This document shows, in pieces, positions 1 through 58,791 of a stretch of DNA of 64,000 bases. Position 1 is the stretch's first letter. Each line of letters starts with the position of its first letter. Below the pieces are notes generated by a model, which was not told the origin of the DNA, searched no databases, and worked only from the letters and a program-made list of their open reading frames with translations. The DNA is from a virus (lineage: Duplodnaviria > Caudoviricetes). The stretch covers positions 6,281 through 70,280 of the IMG/VR virus record IMGVR_UViG_3300035556_000130; one strand, written 5' to 3'. Both the position numbers and the translations under genes were made by a program.

Positions 1-2013
1 ACACCAGTCTCTTCTAACGGTTTCAATTCCTTTCGCCTTGATCTCGCCCTTGTCAGCTGACTCGAACCTGTACATTGCATAGTGTTTTTTTGCCAGGATG
101 AGTATTCTTTTGGCATATGCCTCGAATACCAGTTCCATGGGTGGAGGCAGTTTTGATGTAACCATGTCGGCGATTTCAATTCCTATTTTTTTCGCAATAT
201 CAAAGTCAACGTATTCTCCACAGATATTAATAAACGTGGAATCGGTATCCCCGGCGATAACTTTTAATTTATATTGGCTATCATTGATTTCAATGTACTC
301 CTTCTGCTCTATCATGTGTTTTGTTTTTAACAGATTTTCTCGCCCGTAGCTGGTTACTGAATTAGCGATTACCGGGCTATAAAGTCTTGCTCTGGCGTAC
401 CCAGAATATCCGTAAAAGCTGTTCAGCAATATTTTCATAGCATATTGCTTGGCATCCAGACGTCTTTTTTCACCTTCGGAGATTGCCGGATTCTTCATTG
501 CTTTCTTTGCTTTTATGCGTTCGTCCAGCAACTTTTCAAGGACCCTTGGTACGATACCTCTTCTGACATCGGGTGGGACAAATTTCCCGCCACTTGGAGA
601 TGCTATGAGGTTGCAGTCAGGACACTCTTCTCGGATCTCGGTGGTGTAGCATAGATTATGCGCAATCATGGTTGTTGGATATAGCGATTTGAAATCCAAG
701 ATAACCACGTTCTCAGTCAGACCCAGCACAGGGTCCAGGACTATTGCCCCCTCAACCTGGGCTATATCATCATCTTCCAAGGCCGACTTGGTGCCCATCA
801 CATAGCCTTCTCTATTGTATTCCCGGATGAGCTTCGCTTCGATCATGCTGCTTTGCCCGCCGTTGACAACTACTTGCAGGAAGGCTCCGCTTGCTTTGGA
901 CAGGGCAATATATTTTTCCAATACCCCGGTTTTCTTGATAAGTTCCAATACCAGCAATGCATCTCGTCTTGAGTAAGAGATAAAGCGATTGATATCCGGC
1001 CCGGTCCATAGCTCCTTCATTTCACTAGGTTTAACGTCCAGCTTCTCGATACCCAGGATCTCTTTGGCAACGTTTGCCAGGCGGTAGCTTTTTAGCCTGT
1101 ATTTGTCCAGGGCTTTCACGGCGGGAAGCATATCTAAGGAGATCCGCCCGTTTAGCTGCACGGTACTTTTGCCCATATAACTCTTACACCATGCAGATTT
1201 CCCATCTCTTGACATTGAGAGGGGTACCCCGAGTCTCTTGGCTCTATCAGTTATATATGGGATATCGAATCCGTTTGAGTTGTACCCTCCTATGATGGTT
1301 GGGTCGTACTCGTCAAAAATAAACCCAAGCTTGCTGAGCATGGCAGCCTCTCCTTCGGATTGCAGAACATCGCTTCGGGGGCACTTGATGTTTTTTGCTA
1401 CCATAACCACATTTTCATGCCCTCTCCACGGGGGGTCAAATGCCAGGCTAATCAGAACTATGGGATCTTCGTCTGAGGTTGGAAGCCCACCATTATCCTT
1501 TGGAATGGCCTCAATATCTATCGCCATTATTCTTATCGGGGCATTGTCTTGGTCCCCCTGGGGAATTATGTCTTCGTGTCGAATATATTGTTTTTTTGGA
1601 ACAATGCACCAACACATCCCGGACAATTCGTGATCCACCATAAACCGATCCTTAAAAAATATATCACTCTCATATGTTTTGTTTAGATTTTGTTCACAGA
1701 AGTCACGGAGTATTTTTACATCCTTTGGATTGCGGGTGGTAACCTTTATCATTTTTCGAGGCTTAGATTGGAATCCAAGAGGGCCGAAACGATCTACAAC
1801 TTCGGTTTTTATGAGAATGCCTATCGAATCGGTAACACCCCCCAGTTGTTGGTCTATTTCGTCGATATTGCTGGAATCTACATAGAAATATGGAAGAAAC
1901 CCGGTTATGTATTTTATAACGGACTCTCCGGTCTTGGTTAGACCAAAAAGGGTTACGATCGGAAATCCATCCGCATCATAGCCATAGGTAGCATCGATTA
2001 TTTGAAGTTCCGT
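1..2013 (-). CDS. polB: Family B DNA polymerase with 3'-5' exonuclease; C-terminus runs off the window; missing from the ORF track
   Basis: Frame checked codon by codon, open from 2025 to 1. Motifs: Exo I AIDIE, Exo II GYNSNGFDIPYI, Exo III YSRRD, Pol A DFKSLYPT, Pol B KILLNSFYG, Pol C AGDTDS, KKHY, KGIETVRRDWC. Start placed at ACG 2013; first ATG is at 1752. Confidence 0.97.
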
Positions 2014-2258
2014 TCTGATAACCCCCTATACCCTATTTCTGACACGAGTTGTCTTCGTGCTCGCGCGGCCAGCTCTTTACTTGCACTGAGCCAGGAACGT
2101 CTGTGCGGTACTTCTGCGTCAAACATATTGCGCATTCTGTCTGCCACTAGATGCTTTTCTACCACTGTGGCATATTCAAGAAGTTCTAGATATGCATCTA
2201 ACAGCAATCGCATATTTGATCCCAATTGCTCCAGTTGTTCTGTGTCGGTTATGATCAC
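1998..2258 (-). CDS. Hypothetical protein, 86 aa
   Basis: Tightly coupled ORF; C-terminal ARARRQL..E motif resembles ORFs at 37949 and 41081. Confidence 0.7.
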   Translation of the reverse strand: MIITDTEQLEQLGSNMRLLLDAYLELLEYATVVEKHLVADRMRNMFDAEVPHRRSWLSASKELAARARRQLVSEIGYRGLSERNFK

Positions 2259-5468: not shown

Positions 5469-8400
5469 TTAAGCCTCCCTGTATAGTGCAATTAGTTCTT
5501 TCACATCGTCCGCTACAAAAGCCCAGTTACCGGTTATTTTCGGGGTTGCTTCTGCTTTTGCGGTGGTTGCCAGTTCGGTGTTGCTTCTAGCAATTGCATA
5601 TGCATAGACGATGTGATCCGGAGTAATCGCCTCGATGCCGCCCATGGCATCTACAAATCGTACTGCTCTCGATTTGGTATCGTCTGGAGTGGTGTCCTGA
5701 TATAGGGTAACTGATTTGCGAGCGATGCTGCCGCTATACACTTGCACTGGCAGAGTATATGGTTTGTAGCCATCCTTTTTGATGGTTATCGTATGAATAC
5801 CGGCTTCAACACTGATTATTTCATCGGTTGAGCCGATTCTTTCAGTGCCTTCATACACATCTGCATTCAATCCGGCGGCGTCTATGAAGATGCCAGTTTC
5901 GCCCGTTGACTTGGAATATGTTGATCCGCCACTTCTGCCGCTGGAATACCCTCCGCTTCCACCACCGCCGCCACCACCAGAGGTCTTGCTGCCACTTCCC
6001 CGCCAGGTTTGATTATAATTTTCATCATTGGCAAGGAATGCCTCAATGTCGGTGCTGCCACTGTTGATAAATTCTGCATATTTCCCAGTGTCAATGGTGT
6101 ATTCACTGCCGTCAGACGTCGTTTTCTTCTGATCGATATCATATTGCCCAGTTAGTGGATTCAGCAACTTTCCACTTTGAATTATGCCCGTGGTGTGCGG
6201 GTAACCGGTGTCATCGATCCACGAGACGGTGGTTCCAGTCGCGGTTACTTTAAAGTTTGCTGGGTTGTTTTGTCTGGCGGTAAAGATTGCAGCCTGCTCT
6301 GCTGGCATATATTGTTCTATACGAGCATTGTCGTCAACCAGACCACTTGCCTTATATTCTTTTATTTTGGCAGCAAGAACAACCGGATCAGATATTGCAG
6401 CCAGCTCATTGCTTATCGTTTTGCTTACAGCCTCTTTTTGAAAGATTGCGGTTATTTGGGCGGGCGTCATATCCGGATATGCGGACTCCAATTTTTTCAT
6501 GTTTATACTGCCGTCCGCATTGGTAAAGATAGCTCTCCAGACAATCGCGTCCTGCGGCTGTGATCCGTTATACTGAGCATATCGAGATACTGCATCAATG
6601 CTTGTTGGAGCTACACCCAACACCGCTCTCTGTTGAGGGGTTAACCCATCCATAGTTATTACAGGCGACGTGCTGCCTACGGTGGTTAACGATTTTACTG
6701 TTCCATCAGGCATCATTTGTCCAATGATTGCAGACGGATCTTTTACATCGCTTCCTTTTATTACATGCCCTTGTTGATCGACGTAATAGTTGTCTGGGGT
6801 GATTACTGGTCCTGTTGCAGGTTCGGCTGTAATATTTGCCTTGGCATTCATATATGCCTGGTTAGCAAGTTCTGATTCGGCTCCTCCTTTTACCAGCTGG
6901 TTATATGCACTTGTAAATTCTTTTGTGAGGGTGTCCTTAGCGCCCTGGTTTCCAGCGGCAATCATATGACCAAGACCAACAGCAATAGCCTCATTTGGAT
7001 CGGTGATTCCGAGACCCTTTGCAATCATGTTGTTGGGACCTACGCTACCATCGTCCTGCATATCATATATGCGGCGAACCAGGTCCCCGTTGCAGAATGC
7101 TATTGTTTCTGGATGCAGTGCCCAGTACTGCGGACGCTCTGATTCGGGCCTTATGTGGCCCCAACAACCTTCTCCAACGCTATCGCATCCTTCATCTTTG
7201 ACCCATACCCCTGCTCGTTCAAGTTTACCAAGTTTATCGGCTATCTGACCCAATGCTGCCCAGTCCATGAACCATTTGAAGCCATCTGGTGCAGGAAACA
7301 CATTGCGTGCAAATGGAACATTGTCAAGGAACCAATCGAATGGAGCCAATTTTTCCTTTATTGAATTTATTGCAGGTATGCCTATTGCATTCATCTGCTC
7401 TGCAAACATGTCCTCTGGAACGTTGTATCCGGTCAACTGGATCAACGACTGAACACCTTCTTCTGCGGCAAAGTATATGAAGAGAGCACTGTTTGCAACT
7501 GCCCACCCACCAATTAGGCTCCCAGTTATTTTGAATTTGTTTCTGTAAGCCCATCTAGCAACTGCGCCAGCTGATCCCAGTACTGATCCACGTATAAACT
7601 TGGTGAACTTATCCATCGGCAGAATTTCCCTGATCTGGGCAAGCGTTTCAAGATCGTCCGGCGTTATGATTCTCTTTGAATAAAATGCCTCTATGAATTC
7701 TTTCTGCTTGCCGGACAGAGAATTGTAGTTCGGATGCGCTTTGATGTCAGATATTATCGCATCCTGGCCAGCTCTTTGATATCGCTGCCCCACCACTGGG
7801 TCAACATCGTAGACCTTGTTGAATGCCTCATCTGCAAATGCTTCATCCTTCAATGCGGCTCTAACATCTGGATCTTCCAACAACTTCCGAAGTTCGTCTG
7901 ACTTATTCGCCATGCTGGAATCCAGTATATTGTCAAGCTTCAACCGCCCTAGATCAGCTCCAACCGATACTCCTTCATATGCCTTAGCATTATCTACGAT
8001 TCTGGTGACTTGCTGGTAATCGTTCTGATTGAGTTGCCGGGTCATCGCCTTGCGAATATATTCCTGGTCAGTTGCTGACATTTTGGCTCGGGTAGCGTCG
8101 TCTATGCGGCTTACGGCTCCCTGGTAATGGAATCCCATAATCTTTTCAGCTGCTGATCGATCACTGCCGAGTTTTTCAGAGATTGCCATTGCCAGACTTT
8201 CAGCCTCTTCTCTGGAGGTGTTTCGGAGGTATGCTTTGAGATCATCGCTCTTGGCAAGTGCTTCATCCAGAGCTGCCCTGCCATCCCTGACAGAAAGCCC
8301 ATCTAACTGACGGATGAGATCATCTACGGTGGTTTGACCATTGATTATCTGATTTCCTCGGGCCTGCTGGACATTTCTGGAGTCGTACACCTCTTGATTC

Positions 8401-53777: not shown

Positions 53778-55096
53778 GTCAACTACCACGCCCTGAAGGA
53801 CGTGGCTTGCGACTACGTAAAAAGTCGTGTCGCGTCTGGCGGGCTGACATTACCACCCTGAGACTCAAGGATATACCTTAAGTCTCGTGTTCGGTGCTCG
53901 ATATTCATTGCACCAACTCTATCAGCATGGGTCTCATAACTGCATTTTTCGCATCGAAATGCTATGCCATTTCGGTTATTTCGGCTGATGTGGTTACATC
54001 TTGGGCAGGTTTGGGAAGTAAATTCAGGATTCACGTAGACTACGGTTATCCCGGCTTCTTTGGCTTTGTATTCCACAAAACCTTGTAGTTGCCTGAATGC
54101 CCAACTACTATGCTCATACCTGAACTCTTTGGAGATTTTGTTTTCCGTTCTCTTCCTGATGCCCGTCAAATCTTCCATGCCGATTACCGAAACGCCGTTA
54201 TCTATAGCAAATTCTATGAGATCCTTGGATACCTTATGGTTGATGGCGGTCATGAACCGTGTCTCTCGACCCGCGAGATTCCTAAGAAGTCTCATACTGG
54301 ATTGAGTGCCCAAATATCGACCGCCTGCCTTCTGTAATCTCTGGCGTTCTTTAGATCGAATGTTTCGGTAATTCTTGATTTCACCGCCTGCAAAGAATTT
54401 GCATTGCTTGTCTGTGGTGGATGCAACGGCTAGACAATTAATACCGACATCAACACCCATGAAATTGGATGCATCAACCATATCCTTGTCTGGAATATCC
54501 TTCTCGCAGGCCAAATGGAAATAATAAGCTCCGTCTTTGTGTAAACAGAGATTGGATGCCAGATATTTCCAAGACCCGTCTAAGTATCTCTGAGCATATT
54601 GGTAATTCAAGAATTTGTATCTCTTGCGCCCCGCCAATGTAGTTATGCTCAAGGTGTCTCCAGATATACCAAAATCGCGTCCAAACGAAAATGTAGCGGA
54701 GGTTGGATCGAAATCAAGGAGTTGCCATTCCGATTCTTTCTTGTCAATCTGACTCTGAAGTGTTTTGTAAACTCCAGAAACCCGGCGAGCTACATTACAA
54801 GCCATCTGAGATTTCAGGTTAAGACTGTTCCGTAGATGCTTGTATGTGGCTTTTTGGATCTGTCCGCTTCCAATCGGCTTGCCGATGTCAAACACGATTT
54901 GCGAGGCATAATTCATGCCTTGGGAAAATGCTTTCAGCAGCTCTGCTAGGTCATTATCCGGTGTATCCAATTTCAGGATAATGGTCTTTGTGAGCTGCAT
55001 GATTAAGTATATTCACCCACTGCTATATAAGGTTATCGTCGGTGAAGATGTTTGTACGCGCTCCTCCCCACCGTGAACGATGGGGACTCCGCGCTT
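53778..55096 (-). mobile_element. IS200/IS605-family element carrying only tnpB (IS1341-like)
   Basis: Left hairpin CCCCATCG/CGGTGGGG+AGGAGCG near 55059-55085; right end GCAAGCCACGTCCTTCAGGGCGTGGTAGTTGAC ending at 53778; no tnpA. Confidence 0.85.
53813..55000 (-). CDS. tnpB: TnpB RNA-guided nuclease
   Basis: RuvC I MGVDVG, RuvC II IGMEDL, YTSQ-like FTSQTCPRC, Zn finger CEKC, RuvC III HADRVGAMNI; catalytic residues intact. Confidence 0.95.
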   Translation of the reverse strand: MQLTKTIILKLDTPDNDLAELLKAFSQGMNYASQIVFDIGKPIGSGQIQKATYKHLRNSLNLKSQMACNVARRVSGVYKTLQSQIDKKESEWQLLDFDPTSATFSFGRDFGISGDTLSITTLAGRKRYKFLNYQYAQRYLDGSWKYLASNLCLHKDGAYYFHLACEKDIPDKDMVDASNFMGVDVGINCLAVASTTDKQCKFFAGGEIKNYRNIRSKERQRLQKAGGRYLGTQSSMRLLRNLAGRETRFMTAINHKVSKDLIEFAIDNGVSVIGMEDLTGIRKRTENKISKEFRYEHSSWAFRQLQGFVEYKAKEAGITVVYVNPEFTSQTCPRCNHISRNNRNGIAFRCEKCSYETHADRVGAMNIEHRTRDLRYILESQGGNVSPPDATRLFT

Positions 55097-55696: not shown

Positions 55697-58426
55697 CTAA
55701 GACACCTTGGTTGCCTGATATATCTTTTTCTCAAGTGCACTTGCAGTGTTCTCGGGGGTTGGCTTGTTCAGGTCAATCATGCCATAAACAGTATCATCCA
55801 GCAATACTCCCTCATTAAACACGAGGACTCGGAGGGTCTTATTTCCGCGACGCTTCATTTTTACCCGTTTGCCATCATTGCCGGGAGTAATGTATCCGCC
55901 CTCATGGAGCTGTCTATATAACGACGAGGCAGAGATTGTCTGTGCCTGCGGACCTAAGACCCGTCTGACTGCATCCCTGGCTAGGATTGGTAAAATAGCT
56001 ACCTTTCCTACATCTGAGTCATTGTCTCCAAGTCTCCATCCTATGATGTCAAGGCCGGATTCATTCTGGACAGGACGATCTAAAATAACGCACTTGCCGG
56101 AAGATATCAGCTCTCGCAGCGTCTCGACGAACTGAACGGCTTCGGTTGCATTATCAGTAGCGGCTGATGTTTCTGAGAGCATATGACGTAGACCGTTTTC
56201 AAAATCTGCGTTGTATTTCTTGATAACACCATTTAGCGGAGATTGCAGCAACATCTGCCAGACATTCTTTAGAATAGATATCGTCGTACCTACCCGACCA
56301 GGATTGACGCACCCAGATTCTGTAGCCAAAGACACAAATACAGATCGATCATCGATCCACTGGTCTATATTTATATCAACTTTTGATATGTAATTACACC
56401 AGATCCGCCCAACTGCCGGTAGGTGTTTATTTATTTCCTGCAATTTAGTTAGATTATCCAGATTTGGCGTGGTAGACCATTCTATGGGAATAATCCTGGC
56501 AATGGTTGAAGCTTCTTCTGGCAAGTCCTCGCCAGTTATGATAAGCGTTGTGGCATATTCCTTAGTATCTTGTAACTTGGCATTTCGGTTTGCCCGTTCG
56601 CGTTCCCTGCCTTCAAGGATCACGTGCACCAAGGACACTAGTTTAGCTGGGCCGTCTTTGTGCGTTCCCTTATAATTATCGATACCAGTTGGTAGGCAAC
56701 CACATGCAGAAGCCACCAGTTGTATTGCTGTTACAGTTGCTCCTTCACCCCATTTTAGAAGATATTTTTCACGAGCGAACCCCGCCCCATAGATGGCTAG
56801 TGCATGTTTCATAGCTTCAGTTTTTAGCCCTCTGCCAGTGGTTCCAACCAGGGCTATTCCAAAACGATCTTCCTGGAGCCATCTGGCGCACAGTGGCGAC
56901 GCGAAAGATGTCGTGAGAAGGAGTGCCGCCTTATCAGGAGGCCATGTCTTGAATATTAAGTCCAATGCACTGAGGCCTAGTTTTTCGTCTCCTTGAGAGA
57001 GATCAGCTGGGACCCTGCGCGATATGCTGAACTTAAAACCGTCATCATCTAACCCCGGTATCGCTAGTTTGTCATCAACCCACATGGGTGCGTCTATTGA
57101 TATCATTTTCTTGACGTCTAGCGTCAGGTCCTGGATCATTTCGGCGCACATATCGCGTATTTTATTTCTGGCACCAAAATGAGACATTAAAATACCGCGT
57201 AGTTTTCTTTTATCCGCAAAATCCCTCCCGGATACGGTACATTTGAATTTATGCAGGTCATTACTTCCAACTCCCTCAAGGGTGAAAGTAGCCTCTCCAC
57301 TTTCGTCCCTGGTTTCTTCGGTAATGACGCAATAACCATCACATACTACTGCTTTTACTGTTTTGTCCTCTTTACCTTTTTTGAGGACTTTCTGGTAGGT
57401 TCTTAGATCAATATCTACTCCAGGCATTCCAAAATGTAAATCATCAGACCATCTACGGACGTTCTCTGGTAGATCTAGTGTATCATTATTATCGCCCATG
57501 GTTTTCACAACTGCCGTTTCTTGTTTATCTGGTATATCGAAACCCCGTTCTTTCGCGATGCCGATTACCTGCGCGAGTTGCTGATTGTTTAAGCATCCCT
57601 GTCCAGCTTCTTTGCAGGATATAATTCCTTCTTCAATTGCGAGCCATTCCAGGGGTCCTCCACCGCTCTTGTGCCGAAAACAAAACCAGCAGTTCTTTGA
57701 GGTGTTGACTGAGAAATTTTTTCCGTATTTGGAACCATGCCGTGGATGCGTTCCGAATGTTTCTGAGCCCTTCCTTTCCTTGACGTTTAGCGGCCACACC
57801 ACTTGGTCTATCGGGATGAGATCCCCAATTGAAGATCCTCCAGAATGTGTTTTGCATTTGTGAGATGTTGCAGGTTCTTCTTTTTTGGCAAATGGTTCTA
57901 CTAGCTTTATGAGGAAGTCCTTTTCAACAGTAGCTATCGGAACATTTTTTACTACTTTATAGTAATTGCCATTTGGGTGCAGCGATCCCGGACCAACCAC
58001 CTGTTCTCCAAGTGCCTGTATTTCCCCCAAATGTATGGGATCTCCATCGGCATCCATCAACTCAGGATCTTCGAGAACGATCTTGTTTTTGAAACCTTTG
58101 CATAGCAGGTAGAAATGCTTTCCACCGCGCCCGGTTTCAACCGTAAAAGTCTCGGGTATTTGTGTAATTATATTTAGTTGTTCTAATCTAGGAAGATCAT
58201 CTACATCAAAGACAACAAGGCCCCCCACCCCGGTCAGAACACCGTAATTATGGCCCTCGGCAAGGTACCCTGCAATCACTGGGCTCCTATAATTATAATT
58301 AGTATCAGTGGTCCATTTAAACCCGATGGGCTTCTTGGTGCCGCTTAGTATTGGAACGAATCTAAAACTATCGTTCCGTAGCTGTGGGGGTATTTTATTT
58401 AACGCTCTTTCAAATGCTGGGTCTAT
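55697..58426 (-). CDS. Bifunctional primase-polymerase fused to a helicase-like ATPase domain
   Basis: NYGVLTG..GLVVFDVDD, TVETGRGGKHFY (PrimPol); HGSK..KNFSV..WFCFRH Zn-like; GTTGRGLKT Walker-A variant, IDNYK; frame extends 49 codons above the track start to ATA 58426. Confidence 0.88.
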   Translation of the reverse strand: MDPAFERALNKIPPQLRNDSFRFVPILSGTKKPIGFKWTTDTNYNYRSPVIAGYLAEGHNYGVLTGVGGLVVFDVDDLPRLEQLNIITQIPETFTVETGRGGKHFYLLCKGFKNKIVLEDPELMDADGDPIHLGEIQALGEQVVGPGSLHPNGNYYKVVKNVPIATVEKDFLIKLVEPFAKKEEPATSHKCKTHSGGSSIGDLIPIDQVVWPLNVKERKGSETFGTHPRHGSKYGKNFSVNTSKNCWFCFRHKSGGGPLEWLAIEEGIISCKEAGQGCLNNQQLAQVIGIAKERGFDIPDKQETAVVKTMGDNNDTLDLPENVRRWSDDLHFGMPGVDIDLRTYQKVLKKGKEDKTVKAVVCDGYCVITEETRDESGEATFTLEGVGSNDLHKFKCTVSGRDFADKRKLRGILMSHFGARNKIRDMCAEMIQDLTLDVKKMISIDAPMWVDDKLAIPGLDDDGFKFSISRRVPADLSQGDEKLGLSALDLIFKTWPPDKAALLLTTSFASPLCARWLQEDRFGIALVGTTGRGLKTEAMKHALAIYGAGFAREKYLLKWGEGATVTAIQLVASACGCLPTGIDNYKGTHKDGPAKLVSLVHVILEGRERERANRNAKLQDTKEYATTLIITGEDLPEEASTIARIIPIEWSTTPNLDNLTKLQEINKHLPAVGRIWCNYISKVDINIDQWIDDRSVFVSLATESGCVNPGRVGTTISILKNVWQMLLQSPLNGVIKKYNADFENGLRHMLSETSAATDNATEAVQFVETLRELISSGKCVILDRPVQNESGLDIIGWRLGDNDSDVGKVAILPILARDAVRRVLGPQAQTISASSLYRQLHEGGYITPGNDGKRVKMKRRGNKTLRVLVFNEGVLLDDTVYGMIDLNKPTPENTASALEKKIYQATKVS

Positions 58427-58477
58427 TTAGATTCCCCCGAAATGTTTATAAACGATCTCTGTAATCTTCATGAGCGA

Positions 58478-58678
58478 TCACTTTGGGCCGGAGTTCATTG
58501 CCTGACTTCGGCTTACTCTCCTTGATACCCGTCGATTATGAGCACGGATACCATCGATGAGCAGCTTGCGGATTACTTCGCCGGCTGGTTTGTCTTCGGC
58601 CAGCGCGATATCTTGTATCACGCGATGGGTTTCACGGTCGCACCTGACACATATGGTGTTTTCTAGTTTTTTGCGCAT
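58478..58678 (-). CDS. Ribbon-helix-helix regulator
   Basis: NTICVRCDRETHRVIQDIALAEDKPAGEVIRKLL. Confidence 0.7.
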   Translation of the reverse strand: MRKKLENTICVRCDRETHRVIQDIALAEDKPAGEVIRKLLIDGIRAHNRRVSRRVSRSQAMNSGPK

Positions 58679-58791
58679 AACCGATGGATAGTATTTTTGG
58701 GTATATTAAGTTTGCGCATGTAATACATCTTTGCCGTGCGCAACGCTTATATAGTATGCAATATTTGTAAGATGATATTGGAGACAGAGGT

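Follow-up and report, generated by a model that had tools for sequence, protein, structure and literature searches.

The stretch of DNA described here, referred to as the window, is 64,000 nucleotides in length and corresponds to positions 6,281 to 70,280 of the IMG/VR virus record IMGVR_UViG_3300035556_000130 (Duplodnaviria; Caudoviricetes). The record itself is 70,280 bp long and has direct terminal repeats at its ends. The subject is a primase-helicase (PrimPol-helicase) gene on the minus strand, which appears to start at an ATA codon and lies downstream of a short leader open reading frame (ORF) and a small ribbon-helix-helix (RHH)-like gene. On the minus strand, the junction reads GGGGGA (58438-58433), ATC, TAA (58429-58427), ATA (58426-58424), and GAC CCA GCA TTT. 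An earlier note on this DNA had described an in-frame TAA abutting an ATA located 6 nt after GGGGGA, followed by 49 codons with no ATG, GTG, or TTG, and the sequence reads as claimed on both counts. The earliest in-frame canonical codon is the GTG at 58279, which is codon 50. The chance of 49 codons without a canonical start is about 0.1, which is not rare alone. The position of the ATA is more than chance because it falls in the same column as the initiator M of most homologues (MDPAFERAL) and has the same Shine-Dalgarno spacing. The coordinates of the features are listed in Table 1.

Table 1. Features of the primase-helicase locus and of the PolB start region (positions in the window).
Feature	Position	Strand	Description
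Primase-helicase (PrimPol-helicase) gene	55697-58426	minus	909 codons plus stop (55699-55697), open from the ATA
ATA, proposed primase-helicase start codon	58424-58426	minus	at the position of the family initiator
Shine-Dalgarno GGGGGA	58433-58438	minus	6 nt upstream of the ATA; G5 core 7 nt away
GTG, codon 50	58279-58281	minus	earliest canonical start; rejected as start
Leader ORF	58427-58471	minus	ATG plus 13 codons MKITEIVYKHFGGI plus TAA; starts 6 nt after the stop of the RHH-like gene and ends against the ATA
RHH-like gene	58478-58678	minus	66 codons; ATG at 58678, stop TGA at 58480-58478; conserved in relatives
TATA-like box TTAATATA	58702-58709	minus	read directly; centre about 27 nt upstream of the RHH-like ATG; also present upstream in relatives
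PolB start region	2011-2026	minus	G5 at 2026-2022, 7 nt (T then ATCAGA), ACG at 2013-2011

The N-terminus of the PrimPol domain lies in the part of the protein that is read from the ATA, as the earlier note had held. Residues 20-165 match profile positions 8-153 of 158 in the Pfam family Prim-Pol (PF09250, E=3e-14). Residues 15-114 of the pRN1 ORF904 structure 1RNI align with primase-helicase residues 20-112, and the ORF904 chains 1RNI and 1RO0 together align over residues 19-112. The catalytic acidic motif (D74, D76, and D77, in FDVDD) is invariant across an alignment of 32 sequences. Comparison with ORF904 also places a DnaG-type zinc-binding region at residues 214-270. PHROG matches are phrog_1156 (DNA primase) in the N-terminal part and phrog_8841 (DNA primase/helicase, residues 495-866, E=1.3e-15) in the C-terminal part. 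No Pfam helicase domain was found in the window protein at E<=0.01; relatives of the protein carry PF08706 or PF19263.

A protein search identified 78 homologues, and DNA of over 100 related loci was gathered through protein look-ups and from collections of viral, metagenome, and genome sequence. Most of the 78 homologues open with MD(P/A)AFERAL, and their M occupies the position of the ATA in the window. About 30 related lineages have an ATG at the aligned start. It follows GGAGG or G6 at a distance that is usually 6-7 nt and at most 10 nt, and in many cases it abuts the stop of a small gene upstream. Among the lineages at 52-65% identity, all have ATG except for a GTG displaced by one codon, a GTG in L111, and an ACG in L050. 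The start placed by the earlier note is thereby borne out among homologues, in that the ATA column is the ATG column of the relatives and the ATA is kept within its clade.

The window falls in a well-supported clade of 12 rows (100/99). ATA and an abutting leader ORF occur together in the window sublineage (WIN/L112, L118, and L119/L120), in L004/L005, and in an L002-type group with many identical copies from independent metagenomes. L039 has GTA and the abutting leader ORF, and the GTG-started clade member L111 has no abutting leader. The Shine-Dalgarno sequence is at the same place in relatives and there reads GGAGGG, GGGGGG, or GGGGGC. The distance from stop to start is 0 in every ATA and GTA lineage, and each of the non-canonical starts (ATA, GTA in L039, and ACG in L050) directly follows a stop. 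Synonymous sites differ at 56-84% among four deep lineages, which is near saturation, and the ATA, the Shine-Dalgarno, and the abutting stop are retained in WIN, L118, L119/L120, L004/L005, and the L002-type despite this divergence. These comparisons establish the position of the start and the conservation of the ATA, the Shine-Dalgarno, and the leader ORF.

Three of the related loci differ in context. In L050 (positions 880-920; Ga0116172_10053383), which is at 60% identity, the ACG abuts the TGA of an upstream gene of 77 codons and is separated by 8 nt from GGAGG; the nearest relative of L050 has ATG at the start position. In L039 (positions 1782-2050; WOYI011371357.1), a different small RHH-like gene is present upstream and retains only the C-terminal ...MNSGQE end. 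This lineage also has a TTG at codon 9. In L034 (positions 1401-2000; Ga0209719_1007393), the junction with the RHH gene is replaced by inserted foreign sequence, which may be one end of a mobile element and reaches directly up to the leader ATG; the leader, its stop, and the ATA are intact.

The region between the ATA and the first canonical codon evolves as protein-coding sequence. The pN/pS ratio is 0.04-0.18 for codons 2-49, compared with 0.12-0.15 for codons 50-300, and in three lineages codons 2-9 have no nonsynonymous changes against 2-4 synonymous changes. This pattern of substitution marks codons 2-49 as coding. Purifying selection acts on them as it does on the remainder of the gene, so translation must start no later than codon 2. 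The G-rich Shine-Dalgarno and the ATA form the one start signal of the primase-helicase that is conserved, and the in-frame canonical starts within the first 70 codons are at a different site in each lineage. The GTG at 58279, named in the earlier note as the alternative start, would truncate the PrimPol domain. A start there or at another downstream codon was rejected based on the selection on codons 2-49 and the lack of a conserved alternative. Public calls for ATA-clade proteins (P0001, P0004, P0012, P0015, and their clusters) use non-homologous downstream starts and are not 909 residues long. Every public ATA-clade gene call seen is truncated at the N-terminus, so annotation pipelines miss part of the PrimPol domain. 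Some of the ATA-clade contigs are binned, probably wrongly, in bacterial metagenome-assembled genomes (Synergistaceae, Clostridia, and Omnitrophota).

The TAA before the ATA is the stop of an ATG-started leader ORF of 14 codons, which is absent from the earlier note. The RHH-like gene, the leader ORF, and the primase all share one reading frame. Six distinct lineages keep the leader start (ATG; GTG in L039), the length of 14 codons, and a TAA or TGA stop. Nucleotide divergence in the leader is 0.18-0.33, versus 0.56-0.84 at synonymous sites. The variable columns are distributed 6/6/7 over the three codon positions and show no periodicity. Judged by this distribution, the leader peptide itself is not selected, and what is retained is the start, the length, and the stop. 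A lack of codon periodicity is what would be expected if the leader has to be translated for a reason other than its product. The pattern fits a frame whose translation is meaningful and fits also a nucleotide-constrained spacer, and this ambiguity is what separates the best explanation given below from its de novo rival. The Shine-Dalgarno is formed by two Gly codons whose third base is a purine in each of the four deep lineages, and every lineage keeps the fifth G. L118 and L119 have GGC at the Shine-Dalgarno Gly codon, with the fifth G kept.

A GTGATC sequence at window positions 58474-58479 overlaps the stop of the RHH-like gene and is found 4 nt before the leader ATG in all members of the clade. 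It is also found upstream of the Shine-Dalgarno in distant ATG relatives. The sequence is presumably complementary to the 3' tail of archaeal 16S rRNA. It may be a ribosome-binding site for the leader or an operator, and is a candidate for either. Distant relatives have small genes that abut the ATG, and homology of their 3' ends to the leader ORF was considered and is not convincing.

A second replication gene, PolB, has a comparable start. The earlier note had stated that both replication genes pair a G5 ribosome-binding site with a near-cognate start, and this holds for the ATA of the primase and for the ACG of PolB, which lies at the M position of its family. The PolB loci compared were window positions 2011-2028 (minus strand), L114-L117, and L134-L136. 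The PolB frame is closed upstream by a TAG at 2028-2026, and the G of this TAG is the first of the G5. Read from the ACG, PolB encodes T-E-L-Q-I-I-D-A-T-Y, and its relatives open with M-(K/E)-(I/L)-Q-(I/V)-(I/L)-D. Four IMG/VR genomes with the ATA primase likewise keep the G5, the 7-nt spacing, and the ACG. Gene callers chose in-frame ATGs further upstream, whose positions vary and which lie in unconserved sequence. Sister PolB lineages have a TTG, which is a weak start, 7 nt after GGAGG and behind CTGGAGGC. Among the other long ORFs of the window, none has, ahead of its first canonical start, a strong Shine-Dalgarno paired with a near-cognate codon.

The ATA was found in at least nine distinct sequences from more than 20 independent assemblies. 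Logan contigs identical to the window come from two studies, which are possibly the source of the window itself, and a co-occurring lineage at 86% identity (also a Logan contig) has ATA as well. The ATG, GTG (L111), and GTA (L039) variants indicate that the start codon can change with the gene intact. The weak start codon is therefore long-lived in the clade and not obligatory.

Several other mechanisms were considered at the junction. The region around the primase start has no Rfam match. The G5 of the Shine-Dalgarno (58434-58438) is predicted to pair with a CCCCC in codons 13-14 (approximately 58387-58391, minus strand). L002 has GGAGG with CCTCC, the sole compensatory pair in the consensus fold, and the single-sequence fold near the start has z=0.42, which is not significant. 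A structure that sequesters the Shine-Dalgarno is doubtful, the G5:C5 pairing being short of significance and weaker in L118 and L119. An alternative genetic code was rejected; long ORFs are normal under table 11, and both TAA and TGA occur at the junction. A frameshift from another frame was rejected on inspection, both other frames being closed near the site and having no ATG. The marks of programmed readthrough are missing, as the stop alternates between TAA and TGA, the next codon is ATA or GTA, and no downstream structure is supported. No aIF1/SUI1 homologue, which might alter start selection, was found in a search of the virus genome. Public runs with RNA covering the region are not listed; one run labelled 'RNA-Seq' yielded a single low-depth contig of 260 nt, which may be DNA.

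Taken together, an even chance is given to the following reading: the primase-helicase is translated from the ATA, which is positioned by the Shine-Dalgarno and coupled to the leader by termination-reinitiation, with low output. The primase-helicase would be the last cistron after the promoter-proximal RHH-like gene and the 14-codon leader ORF. The strong Shine-Dalgarno in the last codons of the leader would place the small ribosomal subunit with the ATA in the P site, and initiator Met-tRNA would be used on this near-cognate codon (58426). With the leader stop against the ATA, ribosomes that finish the leader could reinitiate there. The weak codon would hold the output of the primase-helicase low and tie it to translation of the upstream cistrons. 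Coupling is likely part of the mechanism because the stop before the ATA belongs to a conserved leader ORF. In archaea as in bacteria, termination-reinitiation is established where two genes overlap or lie very close together, and it requires no more of the upstream gene than its last 15 nt (PMC10666635); the distances of 0 nt and 6 nt found here fit these requirements. Use of initiator Met-tRNA, low efficiency, dependence on the leader, and any regulatory purpose are all inferred, and low, coupled synthesis of the primase-helicase would be the most economical reading of the locus. The translational brake on replication suggested by the earlier note is plausible, and such a brake, if real, would be adjustable, since the clade also has GTA, GTG, and ATG variants of the start codon. 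A link to a carrier or proviral state, which that note gave as an example, is conjectural.

A number of observations weigh against this reading. Near-cognate codons reach 0.02-3% of the AUG level of initiation in E. coli, where all 64 codons were measured (bioRxiv 10.1101/063800), and reduced translation at the ATA is expected because of these measurements. A strain approximately 97% identical to the window has an ATG allele (oil-facility metagenome, 4.9-kb contig, 12 differences in 451 nt). This allele has G for the third A, with the leader and the TAA unchanged, and a low-depth wastewater contig has the same A-to-G change 4 nt from the contig end. The GTG in L111 likewise means that the weak codon is not obligatory. 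About 40% of the ATG-bearing lineages also abut a stop, and the link between a non-canonical start and an abutting stop rests on two to three independent events and is not statistically significant. The GTA of L039 has two mismatches to the initiator anticodon and would be hard for ordinary start-codon selection. This GTA keeps start-codon-tolerant reinitiation alive or, less likely, readthrough or a hop from the leader.

The closest rival keeps the ATA as the start and makes initiation purely de novo through the Shine-Dalgarno, the leader being an incidental or vestigial spacer that is retained solely for the Shine-Dalgarno and other nucleotide-level signals in it. Such a reading is possible, if on the doubtful side. 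The Shine-Dalgarno spacing equals that of the ATG relatives, and several of these lack an upstream ORF that abuts the start; the leader peptide lacks codon-position periodicity; and the insertion in L034, with leader and ATA kept, implies that the upstream RHH context is dispensable. Against purely de novo initiation stand the retention of the leader start, exact length, and stop despite near-saturated synonymous divergence, and a stop that shifts between TAA and TGA and is never lost. The sole clade member without the abutting ORF, moreover, has a canonical GTG. A start at the leader ATG (58471), with the TAA passed by readthrough or by a hop from ATC to ATA, would add 15 residues and make the ATA an Ile codon. 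The leader and the primase are in one frame in every lineage, the ATA-to-GTA change in L039 is a conservative Ile-to-Val change of the kind expected of a sense codon, and most lineages have Ile codons around the stop (ATC stop ATA), an arrangement that resembles known hop sites. Against these points, the identity of the stop varies and TAA is the least leaky stop, the take-off and landing codons mismatch in L119 (GTC/ATA) and L039 (ATC/GTA), and downstream structure is neither significant nor conserved. A nucleotide-level Shine-Dalgarno at an exact spacing would be needless, relatives and the ATG strain begin the protein at the same position, and a search of the 70-kb genome found no tRNA genes. 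Passage through the leader stop is thus judged improbable.

It is very improbable that the protein begins downstream, at GTG 58279 in the window and at TTG codon 9 or 16 elsewhere, with the upstream codons untranslated. Gene callers picked such codons, giving public proteins of 847-900 residues that start at codon 9, 16, 50, or 64, and the window has AGGAG 4 nt before GTG 58279. This AGGAG is present only in the sublineage of the window, and Val-50 varies synonymously among relatives (GTG, GTC, or GTA). The candidate sites differ by lineage, the upstream codons are as purified by selection as the remaining gene, and a start at codon 50 loses the part of the PrimPol fold that matches ORF904 residues 15-45. 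The last alternative, that the primase-helicase of the window strain is defective or silent through loss of its start codon, or that the A is an assembly error, is favoured by the ATG of the close strain and is the least credible of all. The number of independent ATA assemblies and the deeply diverged ATA lineages oppose it, as do the intact 909-codon frames under purifying selection and the contigs from the probable source runs that match the window. Sequencing or assembly error was rejected as a candidate on the same grounds.

Upstream of the junction, the order of the transcription unit is likely promoter, RHH-like gene, leader ORF, and primase-helicase. The TATA-like box is likely the promoter of this operon, which would give a leaderless or near-leaderless first gene. 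A scan for sigma-70-type promoters and terminators is uninformative for an archaeal system. The best Pfam match of the RHH-like product is DUF6290, which is weak (E=0.086), and a search of the PHROG families gave no match. An AlphaFold monomer has two helices after a short N-terminal segment at low confidence (pLDDT 65). The sequence pattern of the 66-codon gene is RHH-like, and its assignment to an RHH family is tentative. A TnpB-like ORF (OrfB_IS605 plus a Cas12f1-like TNB domain) is located at window positions 53813-55000 on the minus strand, approximately 700 nt downstream of the primase-helicase stop. Related primases sit on Methanothrix and Methanotrichaceae contigs, one of which is 196 kb, and this supports a host of the Methanothrix type. 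A literature search found no description of the present virus group among work on viruses of Methanothrix.

Natural initiation at ATA or ACG is hardly documented in archaea, and here one group of viruses appears to conserve such codons in two replication genes, both of them essential. The locus would serve as a test case for the stringency of archaeal start codons, for termination-reinitiation, and for the ways in which archaeal viruses limit their replication proteins. Natural controls are on hand in the ATG, GTG, and GTA alleles and in relatives with and without the leader ORF. A more speculative proposal, which is unlikely on present evidence, is that with both replication genes on near-cognate starts, replication is set by the permissiveness of host start selection (aIF1/aIF2 state) or by non-AUG-tolerant reinitiation after the leader. 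If true, this would be a translational replication switch undescribed for archaea or their viruses, and the drift between ATA, GTA, and ATG at the stop-start junction would mean that the identity of the start codon makes little difference to reinitiation in archaea.

The arrangement has parallels in several known systems. In plasmid R1, the short leader frame tap must be translated for the coupled translation of repA, and in both R1 copB-tap-repA and pMV158 copG-repB, the gene of the replication initiator shares a transcript with that of a small repressor (PMC5717011). The present locus likewise has a small gene and a replication gene in one likely unit and would provide low, controlled synthesis of a rate-limiting replication protein. 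An antisense RNA like CopA of R1 did not turn up here, no search aimed at antisense promoters having been made. It differs from these plasmids in belonging to an archaeal virus, in having a PrimPol-helicase as the replication protein, and in its ATA as the putative coupled start; the repressor-like gene is here only tentatively RHH, and the coupling is a prediction. The junction resembles the termination-reinitiation cases of Haloferax volcanii and E. coli (PMC6728339, PMC10666635) in its distance of 0, its short upstream ORF, and the Shine-Dalgarno inside the end of that ORF. Those cases restart at ATG or GTG, whereas the restart codon here would be ATA, or GTA in one lineage, and the upstream ORF has 14 codons and apparently no protein function.

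The AUU start of E. coli infC is similar in that a near-cognate codon at a well-placed Shine-Dalgarno is conserved in relatives, and low, stringency-sensitive expression would be expected in both. No autoregulatory loop is evident here, and archaeal start selection is carried out by aIF1, aIF1A, and aIF2, not by IF3. In the AUG-to-AUA mutant of T4 rIIB, AUA behind a good ribosome-binding site reportedly still initiates at a reduced level. That codon is a laboratory mutation, and the ATA described here is natural and maintained across a clade. A clade-conserved ATA start that abuts a conserved leader in the replication operon of an archaeal virus is, as predicted from these alignments, a variant on near-cognate starts and leader coupling.

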